Assembly: GCA_965222225.1 (NCBI GenBank)
Contig: CBDCTK010000002.1
Span: 2,656,001 to 2,720,000, forward strand
Reading direction: 5' to 3'
Length of the DNA stretch: 64,000 nt
DNA from: Candidatus Poribacteria bacterium
GTDB lineage: Bacteria; Poribacteria; WGA-4E; JAJDTR01
The notes beneath the pieces are model-generated. The model had not been told where the DNA came from. It searched no databases and saw nothing but the letters and a program-made list of their open reading frames with translations. The position numbers and the translations under genes are program-made. Positions 38,226-53,784 of this stretch are shown piece after piece. The stretch's first letter is position 1, and each line of letters starts with the position of its first letter.

Positions 38226-39164
38226 ATGACACAACTTCAAAACTTTCGACTGGCGCGCTACCGACTGACGCTGACGGCGTTGTCAACGATTACGATGCCG
38301 CCTTACGCCGGCTCGACGCTGCGGGGCGGGTTCGGTCATGCCTTCCGAAAGATGGTGTGCACTCAGGGACCAATCGACTGCCGGGACTGCACGCTCAACG
38401 CGGTCTGCCCCTATCCGTACATCTTCGAGACGGCGCCGTTTGAGGGGGCGCAGCAGTTGCGAACCTACGGCGATGTGCCGAGACCGTTTGTCATTGATCC
38501 GTTGGATACGCGGGGCGAATACCGCAGAGGCGAATCGTTCTCGTTTCAACTCACGCTCATCGGGCGCGCTATCGATTATCTCCCCTATTTTTTGGTTAGC
38601 TTCCGCGAACTGGGGGAAATGGGGATTGGCAAGGGACGCGGGCGATTCCAGTTGGCGCATGTCCGCACGGATGACGGGGAATCAATCTACGACGGCGATA
38701 CGCAGATGGTGCACAATCTCGATAACGCTCGGAGTTTCGACGATATCCAACGGGAAACGGAATCACAAAAGACGGACGAGTTGACGCTGCGGCTGCTCAC
38801 GCCGACACGCATCACGCACGAAGGGGCGCTGACGGATCAACTGCCGTTTCACGTGTTCTGGCGTAGGCTCATCGGACGGATCTCGGCGTTGGCGTATTTC
38901 CACTGCGGCGAATCGTTGGAGATGGATTTCAAGGGGCTAATCGAAAAGGCGACGAGTGTCGAGATGACGGATTCGACGCTGCGCTGGAAGGATTGGACGC
39001 GGTATTCGTCTCGGCAGGACCGGAAGATGCAGCTCGGGGGGTTGGTGGGGCACGCCACGTATGCCGGGGATTTGGAGGCGTTCGTTCCGTTCGCGGCGTT
39101 GGGCGCGTATCTGCATGTGGGGAAGAATGCGACGTTTGGGTTGGGGAAGTATAGGGTGGAGTGA
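38226..39164 (+). CDS. cas6: CRISPR pre-crRNA endoribonuclease Cas6
   Basis: GSTLRGGFG, CxxC..C, PRPFV, WTRYSSRQ, G-rich loop HVGKNATFGLGKY. Confidence 0.95.
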   Translation: MTQLQNFRLARYRLTLTALSTITMPPYAGSTLRGGFGHAFRKMVCTQGPIDCRDCTLNAVCPYPYIFETAPFEGAQQLRTYGDVPRPFVIDPLDTRGEYRRGESFSFQLTLIGRAIDYLPYFLVSFRELGEMGIGKGRGRFQLAHVRTDDGESIYDGDTQMVHNLDNARSFDDIQRETESQKTDELTLRLLTPTRITHEGALTDQLPFHVFWRRLIGRISALAYFHCGESLEMDFKGLIEKATSVEMTDSTLRWKDWTRYSSRQDRKMQLGGLVGHATYAGDLEAFVPFAALGAYLHVGKNATFGLGKYRVE

Positions 39165-39173
39165 GGTTTTGTA

Positions 39174-41615
39174 ATGTCTAATTTTGAGAGAGACGAACAG
39201 TATTGGGATAGCCACTTTAAGAACATGTTTGGCGAAGTATTTGTTCCCTTTGAGTTTCAACGCAAGGTAGCAGAACATCTTCTAAGCGGACGAAATGTGA
39301 TTTTACAAGCCCCAACAGGAGCTGGCAAAACGAAAGCCGCTTTGTTTCCGTACTTGTTGGCTCAACAGGAAAATATACAATTTCCTCGAAAGTTGATTTA
39401 CACTACTCCTATGCGAGTCTTGGCAAAGAACTTTCACACCGATTTCAAAGAATCACCAATAGGGCAACAGACGTGCCTCAAAGCGGAAATCCAGACGGGT
39501 GAAAATCAAGATGACCGTCAATTTCGTAGCGACCTGATTTTCACGACTATCGATCAGGTGTTGAGTAGTTTTCTTAACATCCCGTACGCGCTGGGGTTGC
39601 GTCAAGGTAACGTCAACGCTGGCGCAGTCGTCGGCGCGTATTTAGTTTTTGATGAATTTCACTTATTCGATCCTGATACCTCGTTGGGAACTGTGATTGA
39701 AATCCTGAAGATGCTCAACGGTATCACGCCGTTTTTACTAATGACTGCCACTTTTTCAGAGGTGCTTCTTGAGCGTTTGAGCGAATACTTTAACGCGGAA
39801 ATCGTGCCAGTGACAGAGGCTGAACTTAAACAAATCCCTTCTCAGCAAGGAAAACGCCGTGAGTATCGGGTTAGCGGGGGAACACTTTCGGAGAACGTAG
39901 ACACGATTATTGCGCAACATCAACAACGCAGTATCATTATCTGCAATACGGTGAAACGGGCTCAGAATATGTTTCAATCACTGCAGAGCAGTTCGCAGCG
40001 AGGTACTGATACGGAAGTATTACTTTTACACTCCCGTTTTCTGAAGGAACACCGAAAAGCCAAAGAGGACATGATACGCTGTCGTTTCAAACGAGACGCG
40101 GGACTCGACGATGTAATTTTGGTTGCGACGCAAGTGATTGAAGTTGGGCTAGACATTAGCTGTGAGAATCTGCACACAGAACTGGCTCCCGCAAGCGCAA
40201 TTTTACAGCGCGCGGGGCGGTGCGCGCGGTTTGAAAACGAATCTGGAACAGTGACAATCTATCCTATTCCACCTACGACCAACGGTTCACCAAATTATGC
40301 CCCTTATGATAAAGAAACTTGTGAAGCCACGATGGCGGCATTTCAACACCGAAACGGAGGTGTGCTAGGCTTTGTAGCAGAGCAAGAGGTTGTCAACGAA
40401 GTCCACCGCGAAAGCGATGAAAAAATTTTGGCAGGTATTGAGACACGCCCAATACGCAGTCGTATATCAGAAGCGATTTCTGGACAGGAACTAGGTCTTG
40501 CCCGTGAATTGATTCGCAAGGATGACTCGCGTATGTTGCTCGTACATGATGAACCCGAAACACTTGATAAGCCGTTTCGCGTTGAAGGTTTCAGCCTATA
40601 TCGCGGCACACTGTTTGGAGTGTGGGATGAGCTTCAACAGGCGGCGCAAGAAAAGGAGCTGGGTTGGTCTCTGAAGTATCCTAAGGAAATGGAAGACAAC
40701 TCGCCAAACAGTCGTACTACCATTGCCTATGAGTGGCATGAGGCAAAAGAAAAGAAAGACTTAGGTATTTCTCCACTGTTTGTAGTGCATCCAAAACTGG
40801 TTAAATACAATACCGAGATAGGTTTCTGTCTTGAAGCAGGGACGACACCTTGTCCACTAAGCGTACCTGACGATGAAACCACGCAAGAAGCTGACTGGGG
40901 CAAAGGCTACTATCGCGAGACATACACCGAACATATCCAACACCTGTTGAATGCATATCAATCTGGTCTAGCGACTGAACTAGATTACGCCGCCGCGCGG
41001 CTTGAACAGAAGTTGGAGGCATCTGAAGGCGCCGTCGATCGGGCAGTAAGGCTCTGCATTGCCCTCCATGATGTCGGGAAACTGACGGTTGGTTGGCAAG
41101 AATGGGCGCACAAATGGCAAAAAGAAATTGGTGAACCTGTCGATGAAAATTACATGGCGGCGCATACCGATTATGACCGTAGCAATCTTGCCATACGCGA
41201 AATAGAAAAGCAATTCCGCGTCAAAGTCAAACGGCCAGGACATGCTGTTGAAAGTGTTTGGGCGGTTGCACCACTGCTAGCAAGAGTCTTAGGCAAAGAA
41301 CAGAAAAATTTGGCGGAAGCCTGTTTCACTGCTATTGGACGACACCATGCACCGCGCGCAAAGGACTGTTCACCCTACACCCTGCACCCTTATGCGCCAT
41401 CTGAGATCGAAACGGTTCTAAAGAAGATAGGAAGTTTAGGGCAGGAGACTCAACGACACTTCGAATCCATCTGTAAGCACAAGGAACCTACAAAGCCTTT
41501 TTCCCATTTTGTCCAGCCGTCTAACACGCTTGCACTACTAACCTATTTCCTGATTGTGCGCGCTCTACGGCTTGCTGACCAAGAAGCAACCTCAAAAGTT
41601 AGCAGAAGGGAGTAA
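39174..41615 (+). CDS. cas3: Cas3 helicase with C-terminal HD nuclease
   Basis: APTGAGKT, DEFH, TAT, HSRF, TQVIEVGLDIS, QRAGRCAR; C-terminal EH, HDVGK, H, HH, LADQ. Confidence 0.94.
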   Translation: MSNFERDEQYWDSHFKNMFGEVFVPFEFQRKVAEHLLSGRNVILQAPTGAGKTKAALFPYLLAQQENIQFPRKLIYTTPMRVLAKNFHTDFKESPIGQQTCLKAEIQTGENQDDRQFRSDLIFTTIDQVLSSFLNIPYALGLRQGNVNAGAVVGAYLVFDEFHLFDPDTSLGTVIEILKMLNGITPFLLMTATFSEVLLERLSEYFNAEIVPVTEAELKQIPSQQGKRREYRVSGGTLSENVDTIIAQHQQRSIIICNTVKRAQNMFQSLQSSSQRGTDTEVLLLHSRFLKEHRKAKEDMIRCRFKRDAGLDDVILVATQVIEVGLDISCENLHTELAPASAILQRAGRCARFENESGTVTIYPIPPTTNGSPNYAPYDKETCEATMAAFQHRNGGVLGFVAEQEVVNEVHRESDEKILAGIETRPIRSRISEAISGQELGLARELIRKDDSRMLLVHDEPETLDKPFRVEGFSLYRGTLFGVWDELQQAAQEKELGWSLKYPKEMEDNSPNSRTTIAYEWHEAKEKKDLGISPLFVVHPKLVKYNTEIGFCLEAGTTPCPLSVPDDETTQEADWGKGYYRETYTEHIQHLLNAYQSGLATELDYAAARLEQKLEASEGAVDRAVRLCIALHDVGKLTVGWQEWAHKWQKEIGEPVDENYMAAHTDYDRSNLAIREIEKQFRVKVKRPGHAVESVWAVAPLLARVLGKEQKNLAEACFTAIGRHHAPRAKDCSPYTLHPYAPSEIETVLKKIGSLGQETQRHFESICKHKEPTKPFSHFVQPSNTLALLTYFLIVRALRLADQEATSKVSRRE

Positions 41616-41621
41616 AAACCG

Positions 41622-43415
41622 ATGTACCAACAGACTTATTTCGTTGATAAGCCGACAGGCACATTTGCCGATGTTTGTTCAGCTTTCGGATTGGCAACTG
41701 TCCTAGACGAATTCTTACGACGTGCTCTCGGTGAACACAGTTTTCGCACTGTCAAAATAATGGATCAGGGGACGACGTACGCGATTGAACTCACCCCCAT
41801 AATGCAAGAAGAATGGGTCGAAAGTCCAAATTTCTTTTCCCCTATTCCCTTCATCAAGACAGGGAAAAATAGTGCAACGATGCCAGAGGAAATTTACAAG
41901 ATTGAATACGACGAAGAGAAACAGATTTACGATGAATATAGAGAAGCCCGTCGAATTCTGGGGCAAACGATTCATCGCGGCGGAAGCGAGAGCCAAGGCG
42001 ATGCCGCTTTACCGGACAAACCAAAACCCAACTATCCGGTTTGGCAGAAAATCAACATGATGTCGGGGATCAGTTCTTACAATGCTGCTGTGGGCAACTG
42101 GTTTGAAGCTCGTGGGGAATTCGCAGAGCTTCTCCATCTTCTTCTTGCACTTCACGCCACCACGCCTAATCCGGTTTCAGCCTGTGAGCAAGAATGGAAA
42201 AAACTCAAAAAGGCGGGGAATCTTTCTGGAAAAGACCGCTTGAATATGCTGCAAATATTCAACCCGAGTACCGGAAAAGGCCAAAACGCCACAAAAGCAA
42301 ACAGCTTGTCGATGGGTAACGTAAGCAACTTTTGGTTGTGCGAATACATAAAGATGGTCGGTTTCTACCGTTGCGCGTTACCACGATTCGTGTCAGTGAA
42401 ACCTGGCCAGCCACCGACGGACCGAAAAACCTTCGCATTAGCGCCTATCAACATGACACTTGCGGCGCACAACGACATTTTCAATAGCTTCCGTGACACA
42501 GTGAGAAGCAATTACGCAATAAAGTCTGACATCTTTGCGGCGCTCAACTACACACAATGCTTTCTGAAATACTCCGAAGAAGCTCAGGAATCTGATGACT
42601 TATGGGGTGACGGTCCCCATGACTTTGTCGCAGGAATGCACACCGCCTTTTATAAAGATCTCGGCAACTCGTCCGCCGTGATGAACCTTTCCTTTATCAA
42701 TCTACCACGCTGGATGAACGTTCAAGATATAGATGATGTGCAGATATACCGCGAGATGATAGCGGAACACCTGCAAATCATAGGAAGTTTAGAAGAGGAA
42801 CGGAGTGAAGGCTTTCAACTGCTCCAACACTATCGGGACTTCCTATCCGGTCACGATTTCACGGCGTTCTTTGAGTTCACAGCGAAATACCCAAACTACC
42901 TGCTTAATGCCTTAGCGAAGGAACATTTCTGGGTTAAGCCGTTGAGCGCAACTAATTTGAGGAGGTTACTCATGAGAAACGAAAAAAAACTCACGCCAAT
43001 TATCAAAAGCGAGGGTTTTCAAAATATCGCTAGAGCCATCCGCCAAAGCACCGTGACGCTACAGTATATGGCGAGAAGCGGAAACCCCCCGTATGACATT
43101 CGATATGGACTCGGACAAGAATTGCGACGCAAGGCGAACTATCCGGACGAGTTCATTCAGGAATTAGGTGATTTTCTACACTCTTTCAACGCGGAAAATG
43201 CCCGCGTAGCGGAAGTTTCATCCGAAAGGGACCGGCGGTTCCGGCGGAAAAGCGTCCGTGTAGATGACATCACCGAAATCGTTCAATTGATTGATGAACA
43301 CGGGGCCCAAACCGTCTGTCATTTGCTGCTAGCTTTCGGATACGCTTCTACCAGCCACGATGAGGCGCCGACAGACGATGCCACCTCCCACACCCAACAA
43401 GGAGAAGGAAAATGA
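41622..43415 (+). CDS. cas8: Type I Cascade large subunit (Cas8-like)
   Basis: 597 aa between cas3 and cas7, NPSTGKGQN motif; assignment mainly positional. Confidence 0.75.
   Translation: MYQQTYFVDKPTGTFADVCSAFGLATVLDEFLRRALGEHSFRTVKIMDQGTTYAIELTPIMQEEWVESPNFFSPIPFIKTGKNSATMPEEIYKIEYDEEKQIYDEYREARRILGQTIHRGGSESQGDAALPDKPKPNYPVWQKINMMSGISSYNAAVGNWFEARGEFAELLHLLLALHATTPNPVSACEQEWKKLKKAGNLSGKDRLNMLQIFNPSTGKGQNATKANSLSMGNVSNFWLCEYIKMVGFYRCALPRFVSVKPGQPPTDRKTFALAPINMTLAAHNDIFNSFRDTVRSNYAIKSDIFAALNYTQCFLKYSEEAQESDDLWGDGPHDFVAGMHTAFYKDLGNSSAVMNLSFINLPRWMNVQDIDDVQIYREMIAEHLQIIGSLEEERSEGFQLLQHYRDFLSGHDFTAFFEFTAKYPNYLLNALAKEHFWVKPLSATNLRRLLMRNEKKLTPIIKSEGFQNIARAIRQSTVTLQYMARSGNPPYDIRYGLGQELRRKANYPDEFIQELGDFLHSFNAENARVAEVSSERDRRFRRKSVRVDDITEIVQLIDEHGAQTVCHLLLAFGYASTSHDEAPTDDATSHTQQGEGK
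42972..43415 (+). CDS. cas11: Putative internally translated small subunit (Cas11-like), 147 aa
   Basis: GGAGG at 42961-42965, 6 nt before an in-frame ATG inside cas8; helical-looking C-terminal domain. Confidence 0.65.
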   Translation: MRNEKKLTPIIKSEGFQNIARAIRQSTVTLQYMARSGNPPYDIRYGLGQELRRKANYPDEFIQELGDFLHSFNAENARVAEVSSERDRRFRRKSVRVDDITEIVQLIDEHGAQTVCHLLLAFGYASTSHDEAPTDDATSHTQQGEGK

Positions 43416-44410
43416 GCGATAACAAAGCGGTTTATTCCCTCACCATCTGTGGTCAAGCCACAATTGATATGCACTCCCTCAACAACGAAGGAAGCGAGGG
43501 AAACCAGATTGCAACCCGAATGGTCAACGTCTACGATGAGGCGGGAAAACTCGCTGCCGTGAACGCAATTTCAGGCGATATGTTCAAACACATTCAAGCC
43601 GAACATCTGTTTCATCTGAGCAGAAATAGTGGACTGAAGCTATGTTCGGGGTGCCAAAGATTCAGTGCAAACCGTATCCTTGATGACGAGACTTTTGTCG
43701 ACAGCTTCGAAAAAAACACCCCCGACGAGGAGATAGTTGCAAAGATGGTGCAAATGTGTGCCATTGATGACGTTGAAGGCATTCTTGTTACAGCGAAGAA
43801 CAAATCCACGCCGCGCAAGTCGATTGTGGAGTTTGGTTGGGTCGTCGGCATACCCGAGTTGAACACGACAGATAACTACTTCCATGTCAAGTATGTGTCA
43901 GATAGTGGAGCACAAAACGCAGATGACAGCGACAGCGCTGATGGCGGTGGAGCTAATCTTGGACAGAACATCTTCCATCGTCCCGCGAATTCGGGGATTT
44001 ACGCAGTTGTCGCAGGGGTTGAGGTTTCACGGCTCGGTTTCAACGATATAAGTCAGGCTTATGCCATTGATGACCAGGAGCGAAATCAACGATACAAAAC
44101 GTTGATTGAGAGCCTACTTTGTACTTTTGTCGATCCAAACGGAGCCATGCGAAGTGCTCAGAATCCCCATCTCGTTAACTTTGAAGGGGTTGTCAGTCTA
44201 AGCACTAAGATTTTGCCCGCGCCAACAATCAGCCCGCTTAACGCCGAATATAAGGACGAAATCAGACGTGTTGCAGACGCGCTCAATCAGATTGAGACGG
44301 ACGCAATTGAACGCCACGAGTTTGACTCACTCGGCGGTTACGCTGAAGTGATGGCAAACCTTGCCAATACAACTGTACCTTTCAAAATCAGTTATAACGG
44401 AGGGAACTAA
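43412..44410 (+). CDS. cas7: Cas7 (DevR/Csa2 type)
   Basis: HSLNNEGSEGN, AISGDMFKH, CSGC, CAIDDVEG, RKSIVEFG. Confidence 0.9.
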   Translation: MSDNKAVYSLTICGQATIDMHSLNNEGSEGNQIATRMVNVYDEAGKLAAVNAISGDMFKHIQAEHLFHLSRNSGLKLCSGCQRFSANRILDDETFVDSFEKNTPDEEIVAKMVQMCAIDDVEGILVTAKNKSTPRKSIVEFGWVVGIPELNTTDNYFHVKYVSDSGAQNADDSDSADGGGANLGQNIFHRPANSGIYAVVAGVEVSRLGFNDISQAYAIDDQERNQRYKTLIESLLCTFVDPNGAMRSAQNPHLVNFEGVVSLSTKILPAPTISPLNAEYKDEIRRVADALNQIETDAIERHEFDSLGGYAEVMANLANTTVPFKISYNGGN

Positions 44411-44411
44411 A

Positions 44412-45113
44412 ATGTGGGTGTCAGCTACCTATAAGCCCGCCACGTTCTTTTCGCTCAAGCCAAGCAATGCTACATCGTCAGGCGGTAAAACGTTGTTAAC
44501 ACCAACGCCTTATGCGATAAAGATGGGGCTGTTAGATGCCGCTATACGCACATGTGGAATCAGTTACGGGGAGGAAGCATGGGAATGGATACGCGGCTTG
44601 TCATTCGCGGTACGTGTTCCCGACCGTGCGTTAGTTAACAACGTGTTCACGCGTATTCTGAAGCCTACTCGTTCTAAGGACAAGGACGGATACGATAGAA
44701 CTATCGGCTACCGCGAATATGTCCATTTCATTGGCGCCATGAAATTGGCATTTGAAATACAAAATGATTTGTTGGTTGATGCAAAGGGACAACAGTTGAA
44801 CAAACTTCTGCCTCACATCACATACTTGGGGAAACGTGGTGGATTCGTTCAATTAATTCCCCCGGTACAATCGCTTGAGACACTACCCGCTGACTTCACG
44901 CTTTTGAGTGAAAAAAGGGATACATGGCATATCCAAAGTCAGTTACAGCACTTGGACGATTGCGACGATGAGATGACTTTCGAGCAAGCCGATATTTACA
45001 GTGGGAAGAACGTTCGTGTTGGCAAGGAACGGCACACCTTTCTTGCCATGCTTCCCTATCGACTATTGAGATCGAGTCGTGGTTTTAGCGATTACGCGCG
45101 TCTGGACATCTGA
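44412..45113 (+). CDS. cas5: Cas5
   Basis: FSLKPSNATSSGGKTLLTPTPYAIKM, YREYV, YLGKRGGF; follows cas7. Confidence 0.87.
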   Translation: MWVSATYKPATFFSLKPSNATSSGGKTLLTPTPYAIKMGLLDAAIRTCGISYGEEAWEWIRGLSFAVRVPDRALVNNVFTRILKPTRSKDKDGYDRTIGYREYVHFIGAMKLAFEIQNDLLVDAKGQQLNKLLPHITYLGKRGGFVQLIPPVQSLETLPADFTLLSEKRDTWHIQSQLQHLDDCDDEMTFEQADIYSGKNVRVGKERHTFLAMLPYRLLRSSRGFSDYARLDI

Positions 45114-45211: not shown

Positions 45212-46000
45212 TTAGTTGCTTGCTACTATCACGAGCACGAGAACAAAAGTCACAGCCATGAATCCCGCAATTACGAAACCAACCTCCCTTGGTTGTTCTG
45301 GAGGGGCGATTGCGGGCGTCGGAGGTGGTGGCGGTGGGCGGCCAAAAGTGACACCATTTTCAATTGCCTCGCCTTGCAGCATTACCATAATGGTTTCCGT
45401 AGTAGCGGGGTAGTATTGTATCCAGTGCGTTGACACCCCGGCCGGCAGGGACGTGGGATCAAAACTGTCGTAGTACAGATCGTAGGGCAGAGCTTCCTTG
45501 CGATGAAATTCAGTGATAATTGCACCGTGTTCGTAGGAACGATACGCATTAACCACCGCGGTAAGGATGTTTTCAGCCAAGGAATCTCCGTAGCTCTGAA
45601 GGGGTGTAGTGAGTCGGTCAATCTGTGCGCCTTCGCGCAAAGGTCCACCGTAGAACTTATACATCACATGGTCTAAGGGCAGGGGCTTTACGATTGAATT
45701 TGAAGCGTTAATAACCTGAATCGGGTTCAATCCTAACTCGTATGTGTCCTTGGTTTCATTCCGGCAGGAGGCGCCAATTCCAATGATGGCATTACTCGGA
45801 TTCCCAACTTGCCGGAATTCCGTGCAAATCAGTCCAAAGGTTAAGTCATGCGTCTCCAGCTTGCCAAGTTCTTGCATTCCTGTGTTCGATTCGTTTGGCA
45901 ACGTCCAAAGTTGCGATTGCCACTGTTTTACGTAGGGAGTGGAGCAGCCGATAGTTATAAGGGGAGTTACGAGTAAAATCAGTAGCGATATCCGTCCCAT
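45212..46000 (-). CDS. Hypothetical lipoprotein with Pro-rich linker and C-terminal membrane anchor
   Basis: Lipobox TIGC, PPPPPTP, hydrophobic C-terminus; AGGAG RBS. Confidence 0.72.
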   Translation of the reverse strand: MGRISLLILLVTPLITIGCSTPYVKQWQSQLWTLPNESNTGMQELGKLETHDLTFGLICTEFRQVGNPSNAIIGIGASCRNETKDTYELGLNPIQVINASNSIVKPLPLDHVMYKFYGGPLREGAQIDRLTTPLQSYGDSLAENILTAVVNAYRSYEHGAIITEFHRKEALPYDLYYDSFDPTSLPAGVSTHWIQYYPATTETIMVMLQGEAIENGVTFGRPPPPPPTPAIAPPEQPREVGFVIAGFMAVTFVLVLVIVASN

Positions 46001-46757: not shown

Positions 46758-47002
46758 AATTTGGGAGCCTCTGAATCAATCTTTGTCACGGAAATTACCT
46801 CACTGTAGGAGCGATCAAGTAAGCGAATAGCGCACGCGATAGAGATCTTCTCCAGGTCGCGATTCCCTACTAAATTATATCCGAAATTCAAGGTTCACGC
46901 AAGGATTTAGACCGCCCCGTATGCATGTCTCTGAAAGAAACCGAGTTTTGTGGAAAAAACTCGGTTTCGTTGAACGTCCGTTACTCCTGTAGGAGGAAGA
47001 AA

Positions 47003-48112
47003 ATGAACCAACTCACTATCTCGGACTACGGTACATCTCTCGGCAAACGCTCGGAGCGCGTCAGCGTGCGGTACCGCGGGGTGGCGCGAGAGAAAGAGGA
47101 GCACGCTCTCATGGATCTGGATCAGATTGTCATCGCCTCGCGCGGGGTTAGCTTGTCGTCAGACTTGATTGAAGCCTGCACCGAGCGCGGGATCGAAATC
47201 TCGTTTCTCAGTTTCAGCGGCAAACCGTACGCCAAACTCAACAGCCCTTCGTTGACGGCGACCGTCATCTCGCGGCGCGAGCAACTCGCCGCCTATCACG
47301 ATGAGCGCGGGGTAGAGATTGCCAAGCGGTTCGCGGCGGGCAAGTTGCGGAATCAGATAAACCTGGTGCGCTATTTCGGCAAGTACCGCAAGAAAAGCGC
47401 GCCCAAGAGGTACGACGAACTGGCGGAGCGGGTTACCAAGATTGAGGGACTGATGGGAGATATTCGTGCCCTTCAAGCGCCGAAGGATGAAGGCAACGGG
47501 GTGTCGCCGATTGACGCCGCCCGCCCGACGTTGCTCAACCTTGAGGGGCGGGCGGGGGCGCTCTACTGGGAGTGCGTGCAACGGCTGCTGCCTGCGGGGC
47601 GATTCACGACACGTGAACATCAGGGCGCTGCCGATGATGTCAATTCGCTGCTCAACTACGGATACGGGATACTCTACTCGCAGGTTTGGAGCGCACTCTC
47701 GCTGGCTGGACTGGAACCTTTTGCGGGTTTTCTTCATGTCGATCGCCCCGGCAAACCGTCGCTGGTGTTGGATTTCATTGAGGAGTTCCGCCAACCGATT
47801 GTTGATCGGGTGGTGTTTGCGATGATTAACAAGAAATTCAGGGTTGAATGGGATGAGCCGGATGACGACGCCGCCAAATCCGCGCACCAGTCGGCAAAGC
47901 CGGAAGCGGATACCGACGTGCAGACGCAGCGGTATCTGAGCAAGGGCACGCGGCGTGCGCTCGCCGACCGGGTGTTGGAACGGCTTCAGGAGACGGAGCG
48001 GTTCGAGCGAAAAGACCAGAAGTTGTGCAATATCATCCAAATTCAGGCGCGTCATCTGGCGATGTTCCTGCGCGGGGAGAGGGATTATCAGTCATTTGTC
48101 TGTAGTTGGTGA
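47003..48112 (+). CDS. cas1: Cas1 integrase
   Basis: GKLRNQ, EGRAGALYW, NSLLNYGY, GFLH, SLVLDFIEEFRQPIVDR; AGGAGG RBS before ATG 47003; contains an acidic low-complexity insert (EWDEPDDDAA...). Confidence 0.96.
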   Translation: MNQLTISDYGTSLGKRSERVSVRYRGVAREKEEHALMDLDQIVIASRGVSLSSDLIEACTERGIEISFLSFSGKPYAKLNSPSLTATVISRREQLAAYHDERGVEIAKRFAAGKLRNQINLVRYFGKYRKKSAPKRYDELAERVTKIEGLMGDIRALQAPKDEGNGVSPIDAARPTLLNLEGRAGALYWECVQRLLPAGRFTTREHQGAADDVNSLLNYGYGILYSQVWSALSLAGLEPFAGFLHVDRPGKPSLVLDFIEEFRQPIVDRVVFAMINKKFRVEWDEPDDDAAKSAHQSAKPEADTDVQTQRYLSKGTRRALADRVLERLQETERFERKDQKLCNIIQIQARHLAMFLRGERDYQSFVCSW

Positions 48113-48263
48113 GGGGCGGGAAACCGATCAACCGAGTGGATAACGAGCAGGATAAACTATCGCCTTCGCTATTCGCTCAGTTGATCGATAGAGATCCTTT
48201 TTTTCTTGAAAACTCGGTTTCTGCTGACCACTAGTCACTGAGCACTGGCAACTGTGTTTTGCC

Positions 48264-48515
48264 ATGCACACGTACGTCATCTACGACATCGTCGAAGATC
48301 GAATCCGCAAGAAGATTGCGGATGTGTGCCTCGACTACGGCTTGAAGCGGTTTCAATACAGCGCTTTCTTGGGTGACATCAACACAACGCGACGCCGGGC
48401 GTTGGATGCAAAACTAACGCAGGAATTTGGGGACGCGGAGGGAAAGATTGAAGTCCTCTCCGTGTGCGCGAAAGATTTCGACCAACGCATTGTTATCGGA
48501 GACGCCGAAAGATGA
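48264..48515 (+). CDS. cas2: Cas2
   Basis: YVIYDI..DRIRKKIADVCLDYGLKRFQYSAF. Confidence 0.95.
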   Translation: MHTYVIYDIVEDRIRKKIADVCLDYGLKRFQYSAFLGDINTTRRRALDAKLTQEFGDAEGKIEVLSVCAKDFDQRIVIGDAER

Positions 48516-49084
48516 ATATACGGGTCAGCGACATCAAGCAGTACTTCTACTGTCCGCGCGTGGTCTACCACACCTACTTCACTCCGGTGCACCGTCCGAC
48601 GACGCATCCGATGGAACTCGGCGCCCTCGAACACGAGGTATTGAGCGTCTTGGAGCGCCGCCGGACGCTTGCCCGCTACGGGCTTGAGGCTGGCAGCCGG
48701 AAATTCCACGTTTCGCTTCATGCCGAGTCGCTGGGATTGACCGGCGTGCTTGACCTGCTTATCGAGACCGAAGCCGGGGCGTTTCCCGTGGAGTTCAAGA
48801 GCACGAGACAACGACTCGACCTGAACGCGAAATGCCAGTTGACAGCGTACGCGATGATGGTGGAGGAGTGCCTCGGCGTCACGGTGGCTCAAGGGTTTAT
48901 CTATCGGATTCCCACGGAGCGAATCACGCCGGTGACGATTTCGGAGGGGCTGCGTGAGAAAACGCGCGGCGCGATTCGGGATATCCGACGAATGCTGTCG
49001 GAGGAGTGGATGCCTCCGCCAACGCCACAGCGCGGGAAATGCGTCGAATGCGAATTTCGGCGATTCTGCGCGGATGTGTTGTGA
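48512..49084 (+). CDS. cas4: Cas4
   Basis: QYFYCPR, GVLD, PVEFK, QLTAY, CVECEFRRFC; ATG overlaps cas2 stop. Confidence 0.95.
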   Translation: MNIRVSDIKQYFYCPRVVYHTYFTPVHRPTTHPMELGALEHEVLSVLERRRTLARYGLEAGSRKFHVSLHAESLGLTGVLDLLIETEAGAFPVEFKSTRQRLDLNAKCQLTAYAMMVEECLGVTVAQGFIYRIPTERITPVTISEGLREKTRGAIRDIRRMLSEEWMPPPTPQRGKCVECEFRRFCADVL

Positions 49085-49499: not shown

Positions 49500-49821
49500 G
49501 TAGCAACCATTGCCGCGATGAAAAGCGGACTGAAAGTGACAAACGTTGGATAATATGTTATACTATACTAGCAACGTAGCAACCATTGCCGCGATGAAAA
49601 GCGGACTGAAAGTATCACGCATCATGGTAGGGATTTTTCTTTGTGCGTGTAGCAACCATTGCCGCGATGAAAAGCGGACTGAAAGGATACAAAGAAGAGC
49701 CAACCAAAAGAGACATCGTCCTCGTAGCAACCATTGCCCCGACGAAAAGGGGACTGAAAGGTCGAAGTGGGACGGATATATATTTGATTGGTTGAGTAGC
49801 AACCATTGCCCCGATGAAAAG

Positions 49822-50018
49822 GATCAAGCGACCGGACAGGGAGCGCGATAGCGTTCCGTCAAATGACCGATTAGGGAGCGCGATAGCAAGCATGTAAGAG
49901 TTATCTGGGCGCCAACAGCGGCACCTAGCTCACGTAGTTACCTTTGCTCGGATGAAAAGGAATGTCTTCAAGTGGGACAAGAAGATTTCTATCGCATTCG
50001 CTATTCGCTCATTTGATC
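49822..50018. mobile_element. Hairpin-bounded cassette inserted in CRISPR repeat 5 (cargo type A)
   Basis: Starts GATCAA, ends TTGATC, flanked by duplicated CCCGAYGAAAAG. Confidence 0.85.
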
Positions 50019-50104
50019 CCCGACGAAAAGCGGACTGAAAGTGCTCAACGCGGATGTGCATATCGCTATTGAGCGCAGTAGCAACCATTGCCGCGATGAA
50101 AAGC

Positions 50105-51103
50105 GATCAAGCGAACGGATAGTGAGTGCGATAGAGATTCCATAGAGTTCCTTCAAGCGACCGGATAGGGAGCGATCAAAGGAATGAATAATGACTGCGA
50201 TAGAGATTTCATAGAGTTACCTCAAATGGAGTTACCTCAAGCGACCGATTAGGCAGTAAGGCTTTCTATCGCATTCGCTAATCGCTCATTTGATCCCCGA
50301 TGAAAAGCGATCAAGCGAACGGATAGTGAGTGCGATAGTAAATCCCGTGCGATAGAGATTCCATAGAGTTCCTTCAAGCGACCGATCAAAGGAATGAATA
50401 ATGACTGCGATAGAGTTCCGTCAAATGACCGATTAGGGAGCAGGGCTTTCTATCGCCTTCGCTAATCGCTCAGTTGATCCCCGATGAAAAGGATCAAGCG
50501 ACACCGGACAGGGAGCGATCAAAGGAATGAATAATGACTGCGATAGAGTTCCCATAGAGTTTCCGCAAGCGACCGATTAGGGAGCGGGCTTTTCTATCGC
50601 CTTCGCTATTCGCTCAGTTGATCCCCGACGAAAAGGATCAAGCGAACGGACAGTGAGCGCGATAGCAAGCATGTAAGAGTAATCTGGGCGCCAACAGCGG
50701 CACCTAGCTCACGTAGTTACCTTTGCTCGGATGAAAAGGAATGTCTTCAAGTGGGACAAGAAGATTTCTATCGCCTTCCCTAATCGCTCAGTATTCGTTC
50801 GGTTGATTGCTATTCGCTTGCTTGAGGGATAATCTATCGCGCTCCTTATTCAGTCGCTTGATCCCCGATGAAAAGGATCAAGGGAGCGAATAGCGACCGC
50901 GATAGCAAGCATGTAAGAGTTATCTAGGCGCCAACAGTGGCACCTAACTCACGTAGTTACCTTTGCTCGGATGAAAAGGAATGTCTTCAAGTGGGACAAG
51001 AAGATTTCTATCGCCTTCGCTAATCGCTCAGTATTCGTTCGGTTGATCGCTATTCGCTTGCTTGAGGGATAATCTATCGCGCTCCTTATTCAGTCGCTTG
51101 ATC
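50105..51103. mobile_element. Five consecutive hairpin-bounded cassettes in CRISPR repeat 6
   Basis: 50105-50295, 50309-50479, 50492-50623 (repeat-only type B), 50636-50863 and 50876-51103 (type A, 240-nt period), each separated by CCCGAYGAAAAG(C). Confidence 0.85.
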
Positions 51104-51333
51104 CCCGATGAAAAGGGGACTGAAAGAGCGGCTAGTACCCTGCCGACCCGTAGGCTGCTTTTGTAGCAACCATTGCCCCGATGAAAAGCGGACTGAAAGG
51201 CCACTTGCAGTCAATGAGTAAGCATAGAAAGCCAGTAGCAACCATTGCCGCGATGAAAAGGGGACTGAAAGTCGTGATATGCGGCGCGGCTGGGATATTA
51301 CAAGCTGTAGCAACCATTGCCGCGATGAAAAGC

Positions 51334-51541
51334 GATCAAGCGAACGGATAGTGAGTGCGATAGTAAATCCCGTGCGATAGAGATTCCATAGAGTTCCTTC
51401 AAGCGACCGGACAGGAAGCAATCAAAGGAATGAATAATGACTGCGATAGAGATTTCATAGAGTTACCTCAAATGGAGTTCCCTCAAGCGACCGATTAGGC
51501 AGTAAGGCTTTCTATCGCATTCGCTAATCGCTCATTTGATC
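51334..51541. mobile_element. Type B cassette in CRISPR repeat 9
   Basis: Near-copy of 50105-50295; same junctions. Confidence 0.85.
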
Positions 51542-51773
51542 CCCGACGAAAAGGGGACTGAAAGGCCCAACCGTTAATCTCTTTAATCGGCTTAACGCCA
51601 GTAGCAACCATTGCCCCGACGAAAAGGGGACTGAAAGCGCGCAGCATCAACGATCTCCAGAGCGAGAAGTTGCGTAGCAACCATTGCCGCGATGAAAAGC
51701 GGACTGAAAGTCCATAAAAAGTTAGATGATTCCATACCAAAATTATAGTAGCAACCATTGCCCCGACGAAAAG

Positions 51774-51935
51774 GATCAAGGGAGCGAATAGCGACCGCGA
51801 TAGCAAGCATGTAAGAGTAATCTGGTCGCCAACAGCGGCACCTAGCTCACGTAGTTACCTTTGCTCGGATGAAAAGGAATGTCTTCAAGTGGGACAAGAA
51901 GATTTCTATCGCCTTCGCTAATCGCTCAGTTGATC
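51774..51935. mobile_element. Type A cassette in CRISPR repeat 12
   Basis: Same cargo as 49822-50018; same junctions. Confidence 0.85.
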
Positions 51936-52255
51936 CCCGACGAAAAGGGGGCTGAATGCTTCCTAATTCATCTTGCGCCATCTCAATTGAAATCTGCCCT
52001 GGATGAATCCGTCTATGAACGCAGATTAGATGCCATCTTCTTCAGTTCAATCCCCTCAAAATAGGCGAATCCCATTACGACGCCAATGAGATCGCCGCAA
52101 TTCAAAATTGAACCAAGCATGCTGCCGAAACCCCTTTGAGGTCGTAGGCAAGCGGTTCCCCATGCGCATCTGCCACAAACTGCGCCGCTGGCCCCAGCAC
52201 CTGCTGCCAACCAAAAGGAAACCGAATCCTATGTATGAATCGCGGCGGTTTTTAA

Positions 52256-52284: not shown

Positions 52285-53487
52285 AGCGCCAACTCGGCGA
52301 TGCCGGTTAGAGATAGTCGCACACCTGTCGCTTCCGGTAATGAGCCGCCGAGAGGAAAATCCAATGTGTATTGTGTGCATTGCGTTCACCCGCGCATCCT
52401 CTAAATCTGTGCTATCAAAAGCTTCCACCGTCTTTGAAGAAGTGAACGCGCCTTCCGCGCATGGCGCTGAGTGTCAAACTTGTTCGCCTTTGCGCACGCT
52501 GTGTGACGCGAAATTAGTAATAAAACCTATGAGCAAATTGTCGAATCTGTGTCTAAACCGCTTTTCCGGTTCACCTGTTTTTGCCCCTTTTCCGCGTCGA
52601 ATTTGTCGGCACATGAGCGAATCTCGGTGGCATCCGGTCGCAGCGCCTGCCACTGTTTTTGGCAATTTTCGCAGTACGGCGGTGAACGAGGTAAAAGTTA
52701 TATTCGCAGTTTATCGCAGTTTATCGCACACTCAATCACGACGCCAAAACCATGTACGAAGCCACGCTACGACACGCTACGACGCAGTTCTCGAGTCGTA
52801 ACGCATTAACTGCGATACAGATTCCTCAAACCACTCTAGGATCAAGCGACCGATCAAAGGAATGAATAATGACTGCGATAGAGTTCCCTCAAGCGAGCGA
52901 TTAGCGAGTGCGATAGAGATCTTACTGCGATAGAAAATCCCGATAGTAGTTCCTGATAGAGCTCCCATGCGATAGTAGAGCCCGGCGCGAGAGCATTCCT
53001 AATAAACCCTCCCCAAAAAATATCCACTAACCCCTGCTTTTTTCATTGACCACATTACACATGTATAATATGATGCCGACCAAACGGATATACCGATGAA
53101 TGAATACCGTACTCCCCGCATTGCCAAACTGTCCTGCTCGAACGGATTAGGTCTTCGTCTATGTGCGCACCGTGACTTGACCTTCAAAACAACGATCTTT
53201 TTCTCTTGTACCTATTTTGTACCTATTTGCCGGTAGGTGAACCCGCACTATCAATGAAAACTACTGAAGCAAACAATGTGAGCACCCTCTCGAAATCGCC
53301 GCTCCGTTCACATTCCTGTACCTCTTTCTGGTGCGGTATTTTTACAGAAAATAGGTACAACCACCGCCTAACCCACCCCAAATGGGTGCTGGATCAACTT
53401 TTTTGTACACGCATTCGATCAATCAGCTAAAATCAACCGACTGGATGGCGTGCAGGATTTTTATCGCAGTCGATGTCTGTTCCTTTA

Positions 53488-53784
53488 GATCCTGTTTGAA
53501 AAGTACAGTTTGTAGGGTGCGATCAAAGGAATGAATAATGACTGCGATAGAGATCCCCTGCGATCAACTGAGTGGATAACGAAGGCGATAGTCTTGTAGG
53601 GTGGGATCAAGGGAGCGAATAGCGATCAAGCGACTGAATAAGGAGCACGATAGAAATCCCGTGCGATAGAGATCCTACAGGTATGTAGCAGCCAACAATT
53701 ATGTAGCAGCCAACAATGAAAACATGAAAAAACTTTCTACAAATGACCAAAAATGGCTTTGCCACCGATTATTCAAACAGGTTC
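53488..53784. mobile_element. MITE with IS5-family-like ends, filled with hairpin repeats
   Basis: GATCCTGTTTGAA ... TTCAAACAGGTTC flanked by TTA; the same right end recurs at 57398-57410. Confidence 0.6.

Follow-up and report, generated by a model that had tools for sequence, protein, structure and literature searches.

Cassettes lodged in CRISPR repeats of a Candidatus Poribacteria genome as a plausible mosaic of a genome-wide hairpin module

A stretch of 64,000 nucleotides from Candidatus Poribacteria bacterium (assembly GCA_965222225.1, contig CBDCTK010000002.1, positions 2,656,001 to 2,720,000 of the forward strand; hereafter the window) holds a series of short cassettes that raise a simple question: how did one nearly invariant inner sequence, here called cargo A, come to be bounded by hairpins that differ strongly from copy to copy? 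The initial annotation of this DNA proposed that the ends are swapped by gene conversion among copies, or else are added anew at each event by a templated extension. Its letters for the region are correct, although it did not mention that the setting is a CRISPR array (short palindromic repeats, clustered and regularly interspaced) and that every cassette lies inside one of the repeats. We hold with moderate confidence that the cassettes are a mosaic of a hairpin module found throughout the genome, resembling the mosaics of repetitive extragenic palindromes (REPs) known as bacterial interspersed mosaic elements (BIMEs), and that ends and cargo have been reshuffled by recombination.

Positions 49500-51958 of the window (forward strand) are a type I CRISPR array located immediately 3' of a cas operon. 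The 37-nt repeat reads GTAGCAACCATTGCC[C/G]CGA[C/T]GAAAAG[G/C]GGACTGAAAG. Of its 12 copies, eight are intact, and these recur with a period of 72-76 nt 3' of cas1 and cas4, as is expected of a CRISPR array. The remaining four are split by eight cassettes, all at one fixed position and in one orientation, with ...GAAAAG(C) directly followed by GATCAA at the left junction and TTGATC directly followed by CCCGAYGAAAAG... at the right. One cassette lies in the repeat at 49796, five lie head to tail in the repeat at 50078, one in that at 51307 and one in the terminal, degenerate repeat at 51748 (Table 1). The insertion position corresponds to the loop of the CRISPR-repeat hairpin, and the 9-10 nt GAYGAAAAG(C) are repeated on both sides of each cassette; these flanks may have arisen by duplication of the loop as target, or be a copy of the target word that the element brings at its end. 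The halves of the repeats around cassettes A1 and B4 are mismatched in their T/C and G/C variants. The GTAG of the CRISPR repeat was considered as a target signal and ruled out, since the repeat of another Poribacteria genome (G015) begins GTCTCAACC and is split at the equal place.

Four cassettes (A1-A4) carry cargo A, which is 102 nt long in each and differs between pairs at 1-5 of 102 positions, so its reported near constancy was borne out. The same is true of the left hairpins, which read AT,CC/GG,GC at 49858-49886, GC,AC/GT,GC at 50636-50665 and GG,GC/GC,CC at both 50876-50905 and 51774-51803, and of the right ends, which do differ and include extra or nested units: A1 has an extra left module, while A2 and A3 share a 66-nt right block. 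When the 17-nt hairpins to the left of the cargo are compared, five of the six pairs show 6-7 differences in 17 positions, an excess over the cargo with Fisher p of 2.6e-6 to 5e-4. The sixth pair, A3 and A4, has no difference in the left hairpin and equal hairpins on both proximal sides, yet its cargos are the most divergent of all (5/102). A2 and A4, by comparison, have cargos that differ at one of 102 positions and left hairpins that differ at six of 17. A3 joins the left end of A4 to the right end of A2. Of the other four cassettes, B1-B3 consist solely of modules, partial modules and tails, pieces of which occur at 126 places in the genome, and B4 is a mosaic whose left part resembles B2 (99%) and whose right part resembles B1 (97%).

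These comparisons support separate histories for ends and cargo. Ordinary point mutation in place, by which the ends would have diverged after local duplication through compensated substitutions and would follow the tree of the cargo, was the outcome that the initial annotation had named as fatal to its own proposal. It was not found, and the incongruence of A3/A4 and A2/A4 means that point mutation along the cargo tree fails to explain the ends. We consider it very unlikely, also given the excess of hairpin over cargo differences and the near identity of orthologous modules described below. Nevertheless, slow compensated change does seem to occur at the terminal cassette, along a path via a G·T pair: the inner pair of its left module is of CC/GG type in genome G009 (read CC/GA), CT/GG in G001 and CT/AG in G004, that is, it changes by single transitions, if these cassettes are taken as orthologous (G009 and G004 alone were seen to share a trailer). 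Consistent with such a path, G·T pairs are common across the genome, and the fourth pair of the module stem occurs in only three states (C-G, T·G and T-A).

The hairpins at the cassette ends belong to a module with the consensus GATCAA-N1N2-GA-N3N4-GRWYA-N4'N3'-GA-N2'N1'-GCGATAG(AGATYCC), which is a 30-nt unit with a 17-nt hairpin. Depending on the search pattern, 613 to 1076 copies are present in the source genome (G000; G001-G015 are other Poribacteria genomes, and g4 and g6 other genera). Four sets are used here: 613 copies matching the strict 30-nt pattern, 749 with only the flanks fixed (GATCAA-N17-GCGATAG), 807 in a strict pairing set and 1038 in a wider set. Searches with spacings of 15, 16, 18 and 19 nt between the same flanks returned 0-5 copies. 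Among the 749 copies, 94-99% have GA at hairpin positions 3-4 and at 14-15, the loop reads G-R-A-T-A, and positions 1, 2, 5, 6, 12, 13, 16 and 17 are variable, pairing as 1/17, 2/16, 5/13 and 6/12. In the stem, two outer and two inner pairs, all covarying, thus enclose an invariant tandem G·A/A·G core. Of the 807 modules, 549 have Watson-Crick bases in both outer pairs, compared to 100 with shuffled partners, and 627 have them in both inner pairs, compared to 139. The paired dinucleotides share 2.2 and 1.96 bits of mutual information (at most 0.1 in shuffles), while outer and inner pairs share just 0.5 bit with each other. The initial statement that changes in the paired dinucleotides mostly keep complementarity can therefore be extended to the genome as a whole. 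The 1038 modules comprise 445 distinct hairpins, of which 309 occur once.

Wobble pairs of the G·T/T·G kind (454) greatly outnumber A·C/C·A mismatches (119), and the strand reading GATCAA...GCGATAG is therefore the one that folds, whether as DNA or as RNA, while its complement does not. Each GA mostly has a pyrimidine on its 5' side and a purine on its 3' side. Sheared tandem G·A pairs in DNA favour such a pyrimidine-GA-purine context.

Modules are largely extragenic, with 7.8% of them inside stop-free frames of at least 200 codons, compared to 76% of the genome. The stacking reported for the window, where ...GGGAGC runs directly into GATCAA..., is real and not peculiar to this locus: 112 of the 1038 modules begin directly after the 3' arm of another module. 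Likewise, the short tails proved to be a genome-wide consensus, GCGATAG-AGATYCC. The modules form 652 clusters, which are mostly direct (++ 72, -- 53, +++ 31), with alternating arrangements being rarer (+- 31, +-- 10). A GTAG within 10 nt upstream accompanies 205 of the 1038 modules and is enriched, but it is not fixed and its spacing is variable. Two further ideas about placement were rejected. For orientation linked to transcription, crude gene calls gave 216 co-oriented and 173 opposite modules at the 3' ends of genes and 196 and 197 at 5' ends. Insertion at the 3' foot of any hairpin was dropped because a perfect stem of at least 4 bp ends no more than 4 nt upstream of a module in 106 of 1038 cases (10.2%) and of a random position in 637 of 5000 (12.7%).

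Nothing supports rewriting of the hairpins in place. Hairpins change little in segments that are duplicated or inherited as a whole: among module pairs of G000 in which both flanks are at least 98% identical, the hairpin is equal in seven of eight, with one change in the eighth. Where only the flank on the cargo side is at least 98% identical, eight of 26 pairs have four or more hairpin differences, as do 38 of 69 pairs at 95-98% flank identity. Since hairpins diverge where only one flank is kept, homology stops at the module. One inner sequence joined to different hairpins is, moreover, a genome-wide feature that extends to other cargo families.

Inheritance was followed through genome G005, of which 488 kb were compared (syntenic, and 83-97% identical over the window). 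This sequence contains 108 modules, 21 of which have a spanning match in G000; after 14 gapped, multi-copy or low-identity (<90%) rows and one false positive of the regular expression were dropped, six orthologues were left. Together with one from the window comparison, these give seven orthologous modules, two identical and five with a one-base change, at a flank divergence of about 5-10%. Four rows with apparent replacements in place (4, 5, 6 and 9 of 17 positions) were ruled out as multi-copy or low-identity paralogous repeats. Most other G005 modules sit in insertions or deletions, and breakpoints between the two genomes fall inside module clusters. Module-bearing insertions between the two (e.g., G000 C2:4023525-4023682) have imperfect direct repeats of 12 nt or about 18-27 nt, and these varying lengths are a poor fit to a transposase with a fixed stagger.

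The templated extension proposed initially, by which ends would be made anew at each transposition from a template locus associated with a reverse transcriptase or HUH gene, or by copying of one arm from the other, is not supported by these observations. The very large stem variety and the weak link between outer and inner pairs are what such a process could produce. However, the GA/GA core is not complementary and is kept all the same, so neither arm can have been copied or corrected from the other, and duplicated segments and orthologues retain their hairpins. No template locus was seen, and the sole reverse-transcriptase candidate of G000 is one weak RVT_1 match (27.5 bits) whose closest module is 2.5 kb away. 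In the matter of read polymorphism, no variant letters were found at hairpin positions in the Logan contigs of four runs, in which rare variants are invisible. We give templated rewriting very little credence. The other half of the initial proposal, a swap of ends by gene conversion, agrees with the separate histories of ends and cargo, as would a homogenisation of the cargos.

How old the end types are can be judged from related genomes. The strict 30-nt pattern occurs 351-944 times in each of all nine genus relatives and 119-145 times in each of four of four genomes of genus g4, which belongs to another family, as well as twice in G010; 16 further genomes of the order have none, and a reversed-pattern control gave zero everywhere. 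Cargo A is far rarer. Its four matches in G000 are all in this array, and among 176 Poribacteria genomes it was found in three (G000, G015 and G007), always at the same site in a CRISPR repeat. G015, from a different family, has two copies at 93-94% identity, and G007 has one partial copy (half length, 85% identity). The 5' part of the repeat differs in the G015 array, as described above, and both cargo copies nevertheless occupy the equal position of the repeat hairpin. A related cargo, starting TAGCAAGCATGTAA and ending ...TCTTC..AAGARGATT, is present in G004 (two copies), G009 and G001, solely in the orthologous array. The same split, at GAAAAG(C) before GATCAA, was found in six orthologous arrays (G000, G001, G004, G005, G007 and G009), and at least nine cassettes occupy the same repeat site across six other genomes; in the orthologous region fetched from G003, no repeats were seen. 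The split repeats of G001 (49 repeats) and G009 (41 repeats, two of them split) lie at the old end of otherwise intact arrays. The G009 array (L114:3660-4960) is also parted by some 1.2 kb of DNA other than repeats, with modules and the two halves of one CRISPR repeat at its borders, and far larger cargos can therefore occupy the same site.

Both left-end types recur with related cargo in other species: GG-GC-GAATA-GC-CC in G007, and GC-CC-GGAYA-GG-GC in G015, G009 and G004. The end variants are therefore old, and exchange among copies becomes an economical explanation. Because old end types are combined with near-identical cargos in G000, this exchange, either a swap of ends or a conversion of cargo, would have taken place among copies within 2 kb of one another. 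The mosaic make-up of B4, the mismatched repeat halves around A1 and B4 and the mixed arms of the intact repeats at 51163 and 51235 are further marks of such exchange. The alternative is that each type-A cassette was inserted singly from a diverse pool, perhaps in co-resident Poribacteria, and arrived with its own ends. The occurrence of the same cargo family with other ends in other species and the strict reuse of the insertion site are consistent with this, as is a second cargo variant in sequencing run X3, which covers 49865-49972 with eight differences in 108 nt, is G015-like and, at a depth of about 119, is found in a run that also holds this array. Probably, then, two lineages with type-A cassettes share one host community. 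We nevertheless find separate arrivals unlikely. They only move the question, since the pool must already join one cargo to different ends; the cargos of G000 are 95-99% alike, compared to 93-94% identity to G015 and 85% to G007, and yet the end types are shared; and A3 is composed of ends of A4 and A2.

Could the mosaic cassettes be chimeras from a mis-assembled, repeat-rich region? Repeats abound in the region, and none of the run contigs spans the array on its own. Nevertheless, Logan contigs of run X2 match the assembly with 0 differences at junctions 49724-49850, 49822-49932, 50598-50711, 51087-51334 and 51682-51797, and a contig of run X3 covers the junction at 50876-50977, also with 0 differences. 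The depth of the junction contigs (about 100-118) is that of unique flank (about 111), the left junction of A1 is present in runs from two further studies, and the same architecture occurs in independently assembled genomes. We regard an assembly artefact as scarcely credible.

We return to the reading of the cassettes as a reshuffled mosaic and consider how it might arise. The stem diversity would be standing variation, built slowly by compensatory substitutions through G·T intermediates, and selection for a foldable single strand would maintain the pairing. Recombination or gene conversion between the cargo copies of the locus would reshuffle ends and cargo, and whole or partial modules would be gained, lost and exchanged at the conserved head and neck motifs. 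An HUH tyrosine (Y1) transposase similar to the REP-associated tyrosine transposases (RAYTs) might act on single-stranded DNA to bring about exchange and insertion, although this last step is weakly inferred.

Five Y1_Tnp loci are present in G000. The best of these (C2:3080258-3080728) encodes a protein of 157 aa, is the single full-length copy and scores 65.8 bits to the NCBIfam IS200 model (cut-off 55) and 30.6 to REP_Tyr_transpos (cut-off 80); its HUH motif and tyrosine region align with solved IS200/IS605 transposases (PDB 2fyx, 2xm3; E ~1e-5). The open reading frame (ORF) makes up 77% of a 611-nt interval between inverted modules, and five of the six genus relatives examined have a module no more than about 200 nt from the homologous Y1 gene. 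Among the longest ORFs of 171 convergent-module intervals, judged by eye and not by a family scan, no transposase with module ends was found except for this Y1 gene and IS3 fragments, and the remainder look like ordinary genes. In passages of PMC8266576, E. coli TnpA-REP is described as cleaving and recombining single-stranded REPs in vitro, with a conserved mismatch, a bulge in the REP stem, being required for activity. By analogy with this recombination of REPs and the need for a stem irregularity, and from the single-strand signature of the modules, a candidate HUH enzyme may be linked to the modules, a link that we make only tentatively. Two remnants of the IS200-like gene, each consisting of its final 15 codons (G000 C2:3946492-3946536 and 3625886-3625930), have a module-like repeat no more than about 45 nt away and resemble decayed earlier copies of the gene together with its flank.

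The nearest flanks of the IS200-like gene are inverted copies of another hairpin, AAGCCCCAGNGGGG(CGACAGGTG), in three genera (L001:1300-1340 and 1880-1910; G000 C2 near 3.080 Mb; L013-L016). There are about 105 copies of AAGCCCCAGNGGGG in G000, about 55 of which have a GA module directly after them. This hairpin may be either a favoured landing site of the GA modules or the true partner of the IS200-like gene.

We would like to point out that a number of observations weigh against the reading of a reshuffled mosaic and, in particular, against its enzymatic part. The possession of AAGCCCCAGNGGGG as nearest flank of the IS200-like gene, in G000 as in genera g4 and g6, is one of these. Genus g6 has the gene (three of three genomes) and no modules (none of three), and two g4 genomes with 119 and 139 modules lack any match to it. 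Modules bracket a second RAYT-like gene in G000 alone, in a truncated copy, and its intact homologues in relatives have no module within about 600 nt. HUH transposases produce no target duplication, and yet GAYGAAAAG(C) flanks each cassette; these flanks, compared by eye, are a perfect repeat in only four of about nine single cassettes. Nearest-neighbour DNA folding of three left-end modules gave -1.8 to -2.9 kcal/mol, not below shuffles (z-scores of -0.48 to +0.62 for the six strands). The 508 leading-strand and 528 lagging-strand modules (288 and 306 clusters) show no orientation bias relative to the replichores, which were deduced from a weak and possibly misleading GC skew. For the four cargo copies, furthermore, recombination would be read from incongruence in few differences, and the blindness of contigs to rare variants belongs on the same side.

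A bolder reading is that Poribacteria have an undescribed cassette system based on hairpins, with the modules as its recombination sites and an HUH tyrosine enzyme to run it. Such an enzyme would read structure (the tandem G·A core, in Y-GA-R context, between any two paired dinucleotides) instead of sequence. Through it, any two modules would swap single strands in the way that attC sites do through an integron integrase, and the resulting cassettes would be inserted into the loop of the CRISPR-repeat hairpin. We view this as improbable. If it were true, cassettes with shuffled ends and a CRISPR-derived cargo would be resident in arrays across families and would progressively disable them. The origin of the cargo is a matter in its own right: all four copies of cargo A contain a stretch resembling a degenerate copy of the whole CRISPR repeat (GTAGTTACCTTTGCTCGGATGAAAAGGAATGTCTTCAAG), with a weaker version in the related cargo of G001, G004 and G009, and cargo A may therefore derive from a CRISPR array.

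Among known systems, analogy would place REP/BIME mosaics closest in mechanism to the modules and their reshuffling as we favour it, together with, on paper, attC-bounded cassettes. Passages of PMC8266576, PMC3116915 and PMC3733652 on REPs, BIMEs and RAYTs of E. coli (TnpA-REP), Pseudomonas and Stenotrophomonas were the basis of the comparison. The modules agree with REPs in size (30 nt, where REPs have 20-40), in being present in more than 100 copies and in their extragenic place, and, as with BIMEs, there are hundreds of short extragenic hairpins forming mosaics of mixed types, with an irregular stem and a sequence otherwise loosely read. Mixed hairpin combinations are normal in such mosaics, and the earlier remark that the cassettes would be unusual for a MITE (a miniature transposable element with inverted repeats) is thus beside the point. 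In contrast to REPs, the modules have no fixed GTAG or CGTC tag, and their stem has only 2+2 pairs around the tandem G·A, in 445 variants with no single master sequence; in contrast to BIMEs, their clusters are mostly head to tail. The single-copy HUH Y1 gene bracketed by inverted modules is reminiscent of a REPtron, but it scores as IS200 and not as REP_Tyr_transpos, and its nearest flanks are the other hairpin. Convergent doublets of modules, many of them 61 nt long, and compensatory changes that keep hairpins recall the REP doublets called REPINs, as described in passages of Bertels and Rainey 2011 (PMC3116915). None of 26 doublets is symmetric, however: their hairpins differ at 4-10 of 17 positions, and therefore form no long doublet hairpin, so that the doublet is not the duplicated unit.

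Other systems resemble the cassettes in fewer respects. A MITE of the DDE type would have terminal inverted repeats like those of an autonomous element and a target duplication of one length; the cassettes have inverted modules as ends, which differ in the variable letters, and a 9-10-nt flanking repeat that is often imperfect. A 276-nt insertion in G005, with terminal inverted repeats GAGCCYGTTTGAA, a short CTCTAA-like duplication and a GA module inside, looks like an ordinary MITE. Integron attC sites, with which REPs are compared in a passage of PMC8266576, are likewise folded single-strand sites with conserved outer boxes, a paired and free interior and cassettes stacked at one site; the modules are 30 nt long compared to 57-141 for attC, the cargo of the cassettes is non-coding, and no search for an integrase or attI was made. 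IS200/IS605 elements share the candidate enzyme family and single-stranded hairpin substrates. They have their end hairpins on one strand, cause no duplication and show a replication-strand bias. The cassettes differ in having inverted ends, a 9-10-nt flanking repeat and no strand bias that could be seen, though they may carry their own copy of the target word.

Small dispersed repeats (SDRs) of the Nostocaceae (Elhai et al. 2008), compared by description only, are similar in having modules of about 21-27 nt and precise insertion. They also nest into each other. According to a passage of PMC4390886, SDR5 enters GCGATCGC between bases three and four, and a passage of PMC5861425 reports SDRs in Nostocaceae only. 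Membership in the SDRs or in HIP1 (highly iterated palindrome 1), suggested by the GCGAT and GATC motifs, was dropped because the relatives of this genome are Candidatus Poribacteria and not cyanobacteria. Parting of a CRISPR array by a small element has a precedent in Anabaena 7120, where, per a passage of bioRxiv 10.1101/2020.04.14.041012, a 134-nt MITE divides one array into CR_6 and CR_7. In contrast, the site here is constant and in the loop of the repeat hairpin, and the cargo A family is found nowhere but in arrays. Literature searches brought up no description of this module family or of repeat-lodged cassettes in Poribacteria.

These results matter in several ways. The modules bear on how REP-type repeats spread and on the role of their transposase-like genes, as an unusually clean natural experiment: in about a thousand copies, the fixed geometry of the module (17 nt, with a G·A/A·G core) is kept as four pairs pass through almost every permitted combination, which shows which features are read by its partner. 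The appearance of rewritten ends can stem from the reshuffling of a diverse hairpin pool. Lodging in the loop, found in every orthologous array fetched with repeats and in a second family, amounts to a route of array erosion that depends on the repeat's own hairpin, and it may bear on decay from the old end in the arrays of these uncultured sponge symbionts.

Table 1. Repeats, cassettes, cas genes and module clusters at the CRISPR locus (positions in the window)
Feature	Position	Strand	Remarks
Intact CRISPR repeats (starts)	49500, 49576, 49649, 49724, 51163, 51235, 51601, 51674	+	
Interrupted repeat 5	left half 49796-49821, right half 50019-50041	+	
Cassette A1	49822-50018	+	left modules GC-CC-GGACA-GG-GC and AT-CC-GATTA-GG-GC; cargo 49887-49988; right end, inverted module AT-GC-GAATA-GC-AT
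Interrupted repeat 6	left half 50078-50104, right half 51104-51126	+	holds five cassettes head to tail
Separators CCCGAYGAAAAG(C) in repeat 6	50296-50308, 50480-50491, 50624-50635, 50864-50875	+	
Cassette B1	50105-50295	+	closes with inverted module
Cassette B2	50309-50479	+	closes with inverted module
Cassette B3	50492-50623	+	closes with inverted module
Cassette A2	50636-50863	+	left module GC-AC-GGACA-GT-GC; cargo 50666-50767; right end, 66 nt of extra or partial modules, then outer module GC-CT-GAATA-AG-GC
Repeat-like stretch (GTAGTTACCTTTGCTCGGATGAAAAGGAATGTCTTCAAG) in cargo A	50718-50756	+	degenerate; in all four cargo copies
Cassette A3	50876-51103	+	left module GG-GC-GAATA-GC-CC; cargo 50906-51007; right end as A2
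Cassette B4	51334-51541	+	inside repeat 51307-51333 / 51542-51564
Cassette A4	51774-51935	+	inside terminal degenerate repeat 51748-51773 / 51936-51958; cargo 51804-51905; left module GG-GC-GAATA-GC-CC; right module CT-GC-GATTA-GC-AG
cas6	38226-39164	+	Pfam scan
cas3	39174-41615	+	Pfam scan
ORF of 597 aa	41622-43415	+	Pfam scan, no family
cas7	43412-44410	+	Pfam scan
cas5-like	44361-45113	+	Pfam, below curated cut-off (20.8 vs 23 bits)
ORF inside cas operon	45212-46000	-	Pfam scan, no family
cas1	46925-48112	+	Pfam scan
Convergent doublet, 61 nt	48126-48186	.	two different modules; between cas1 and cas4
cas4	48464-49084	+	Pfam scan
Module clusters 3' of array	52840-53680 (52855, 52890, 53524, 53565, 53608, 53627)	+	

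The genes of the locus were assigned by a Pfam scan of 12 ORFs, three of which had no family. One of these, the 597-aa ORF, occupies the position expected for Cas8 or Cas10d as the large subunit. Between cas1 and the array no cas2 came to light, and Rfam gave no family at gathering score in the window. Within the array, the arms of the intact repeats 51163-51199 and 51235-51271 are of differing variant types (CCCC/GCGG and CCGC/GGGG, respectively), leaving a mismatch in each hairpin; recombination between variants of the repeat, or loss of a cassette, appears to have produced these two repeats. Elsewhere in G000, orphan mini-loci of one or two repeats (GTTGCAGCCTATGCCCCGATGAAAAGGGGACTGAAAG) lie at C2:1309656-1309681, 5055015-5055040 and 5058838-5058863, each preceded by near-identical, leader-like DNA, and no cassette is inserted in any of the three. 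A segment of about 1.3 kb between module clusters (G000 C2:1315061-1316377 and similar) encodes a 335-aa protein with no Pfam family, and it was grouped with other inter-module segments of about 1.3-1.4 kb. Finally, a repeat of at least 320 nt is present in G000 in 24 near-identical copies (C2:263541, 289050, 416101 and 21 more).

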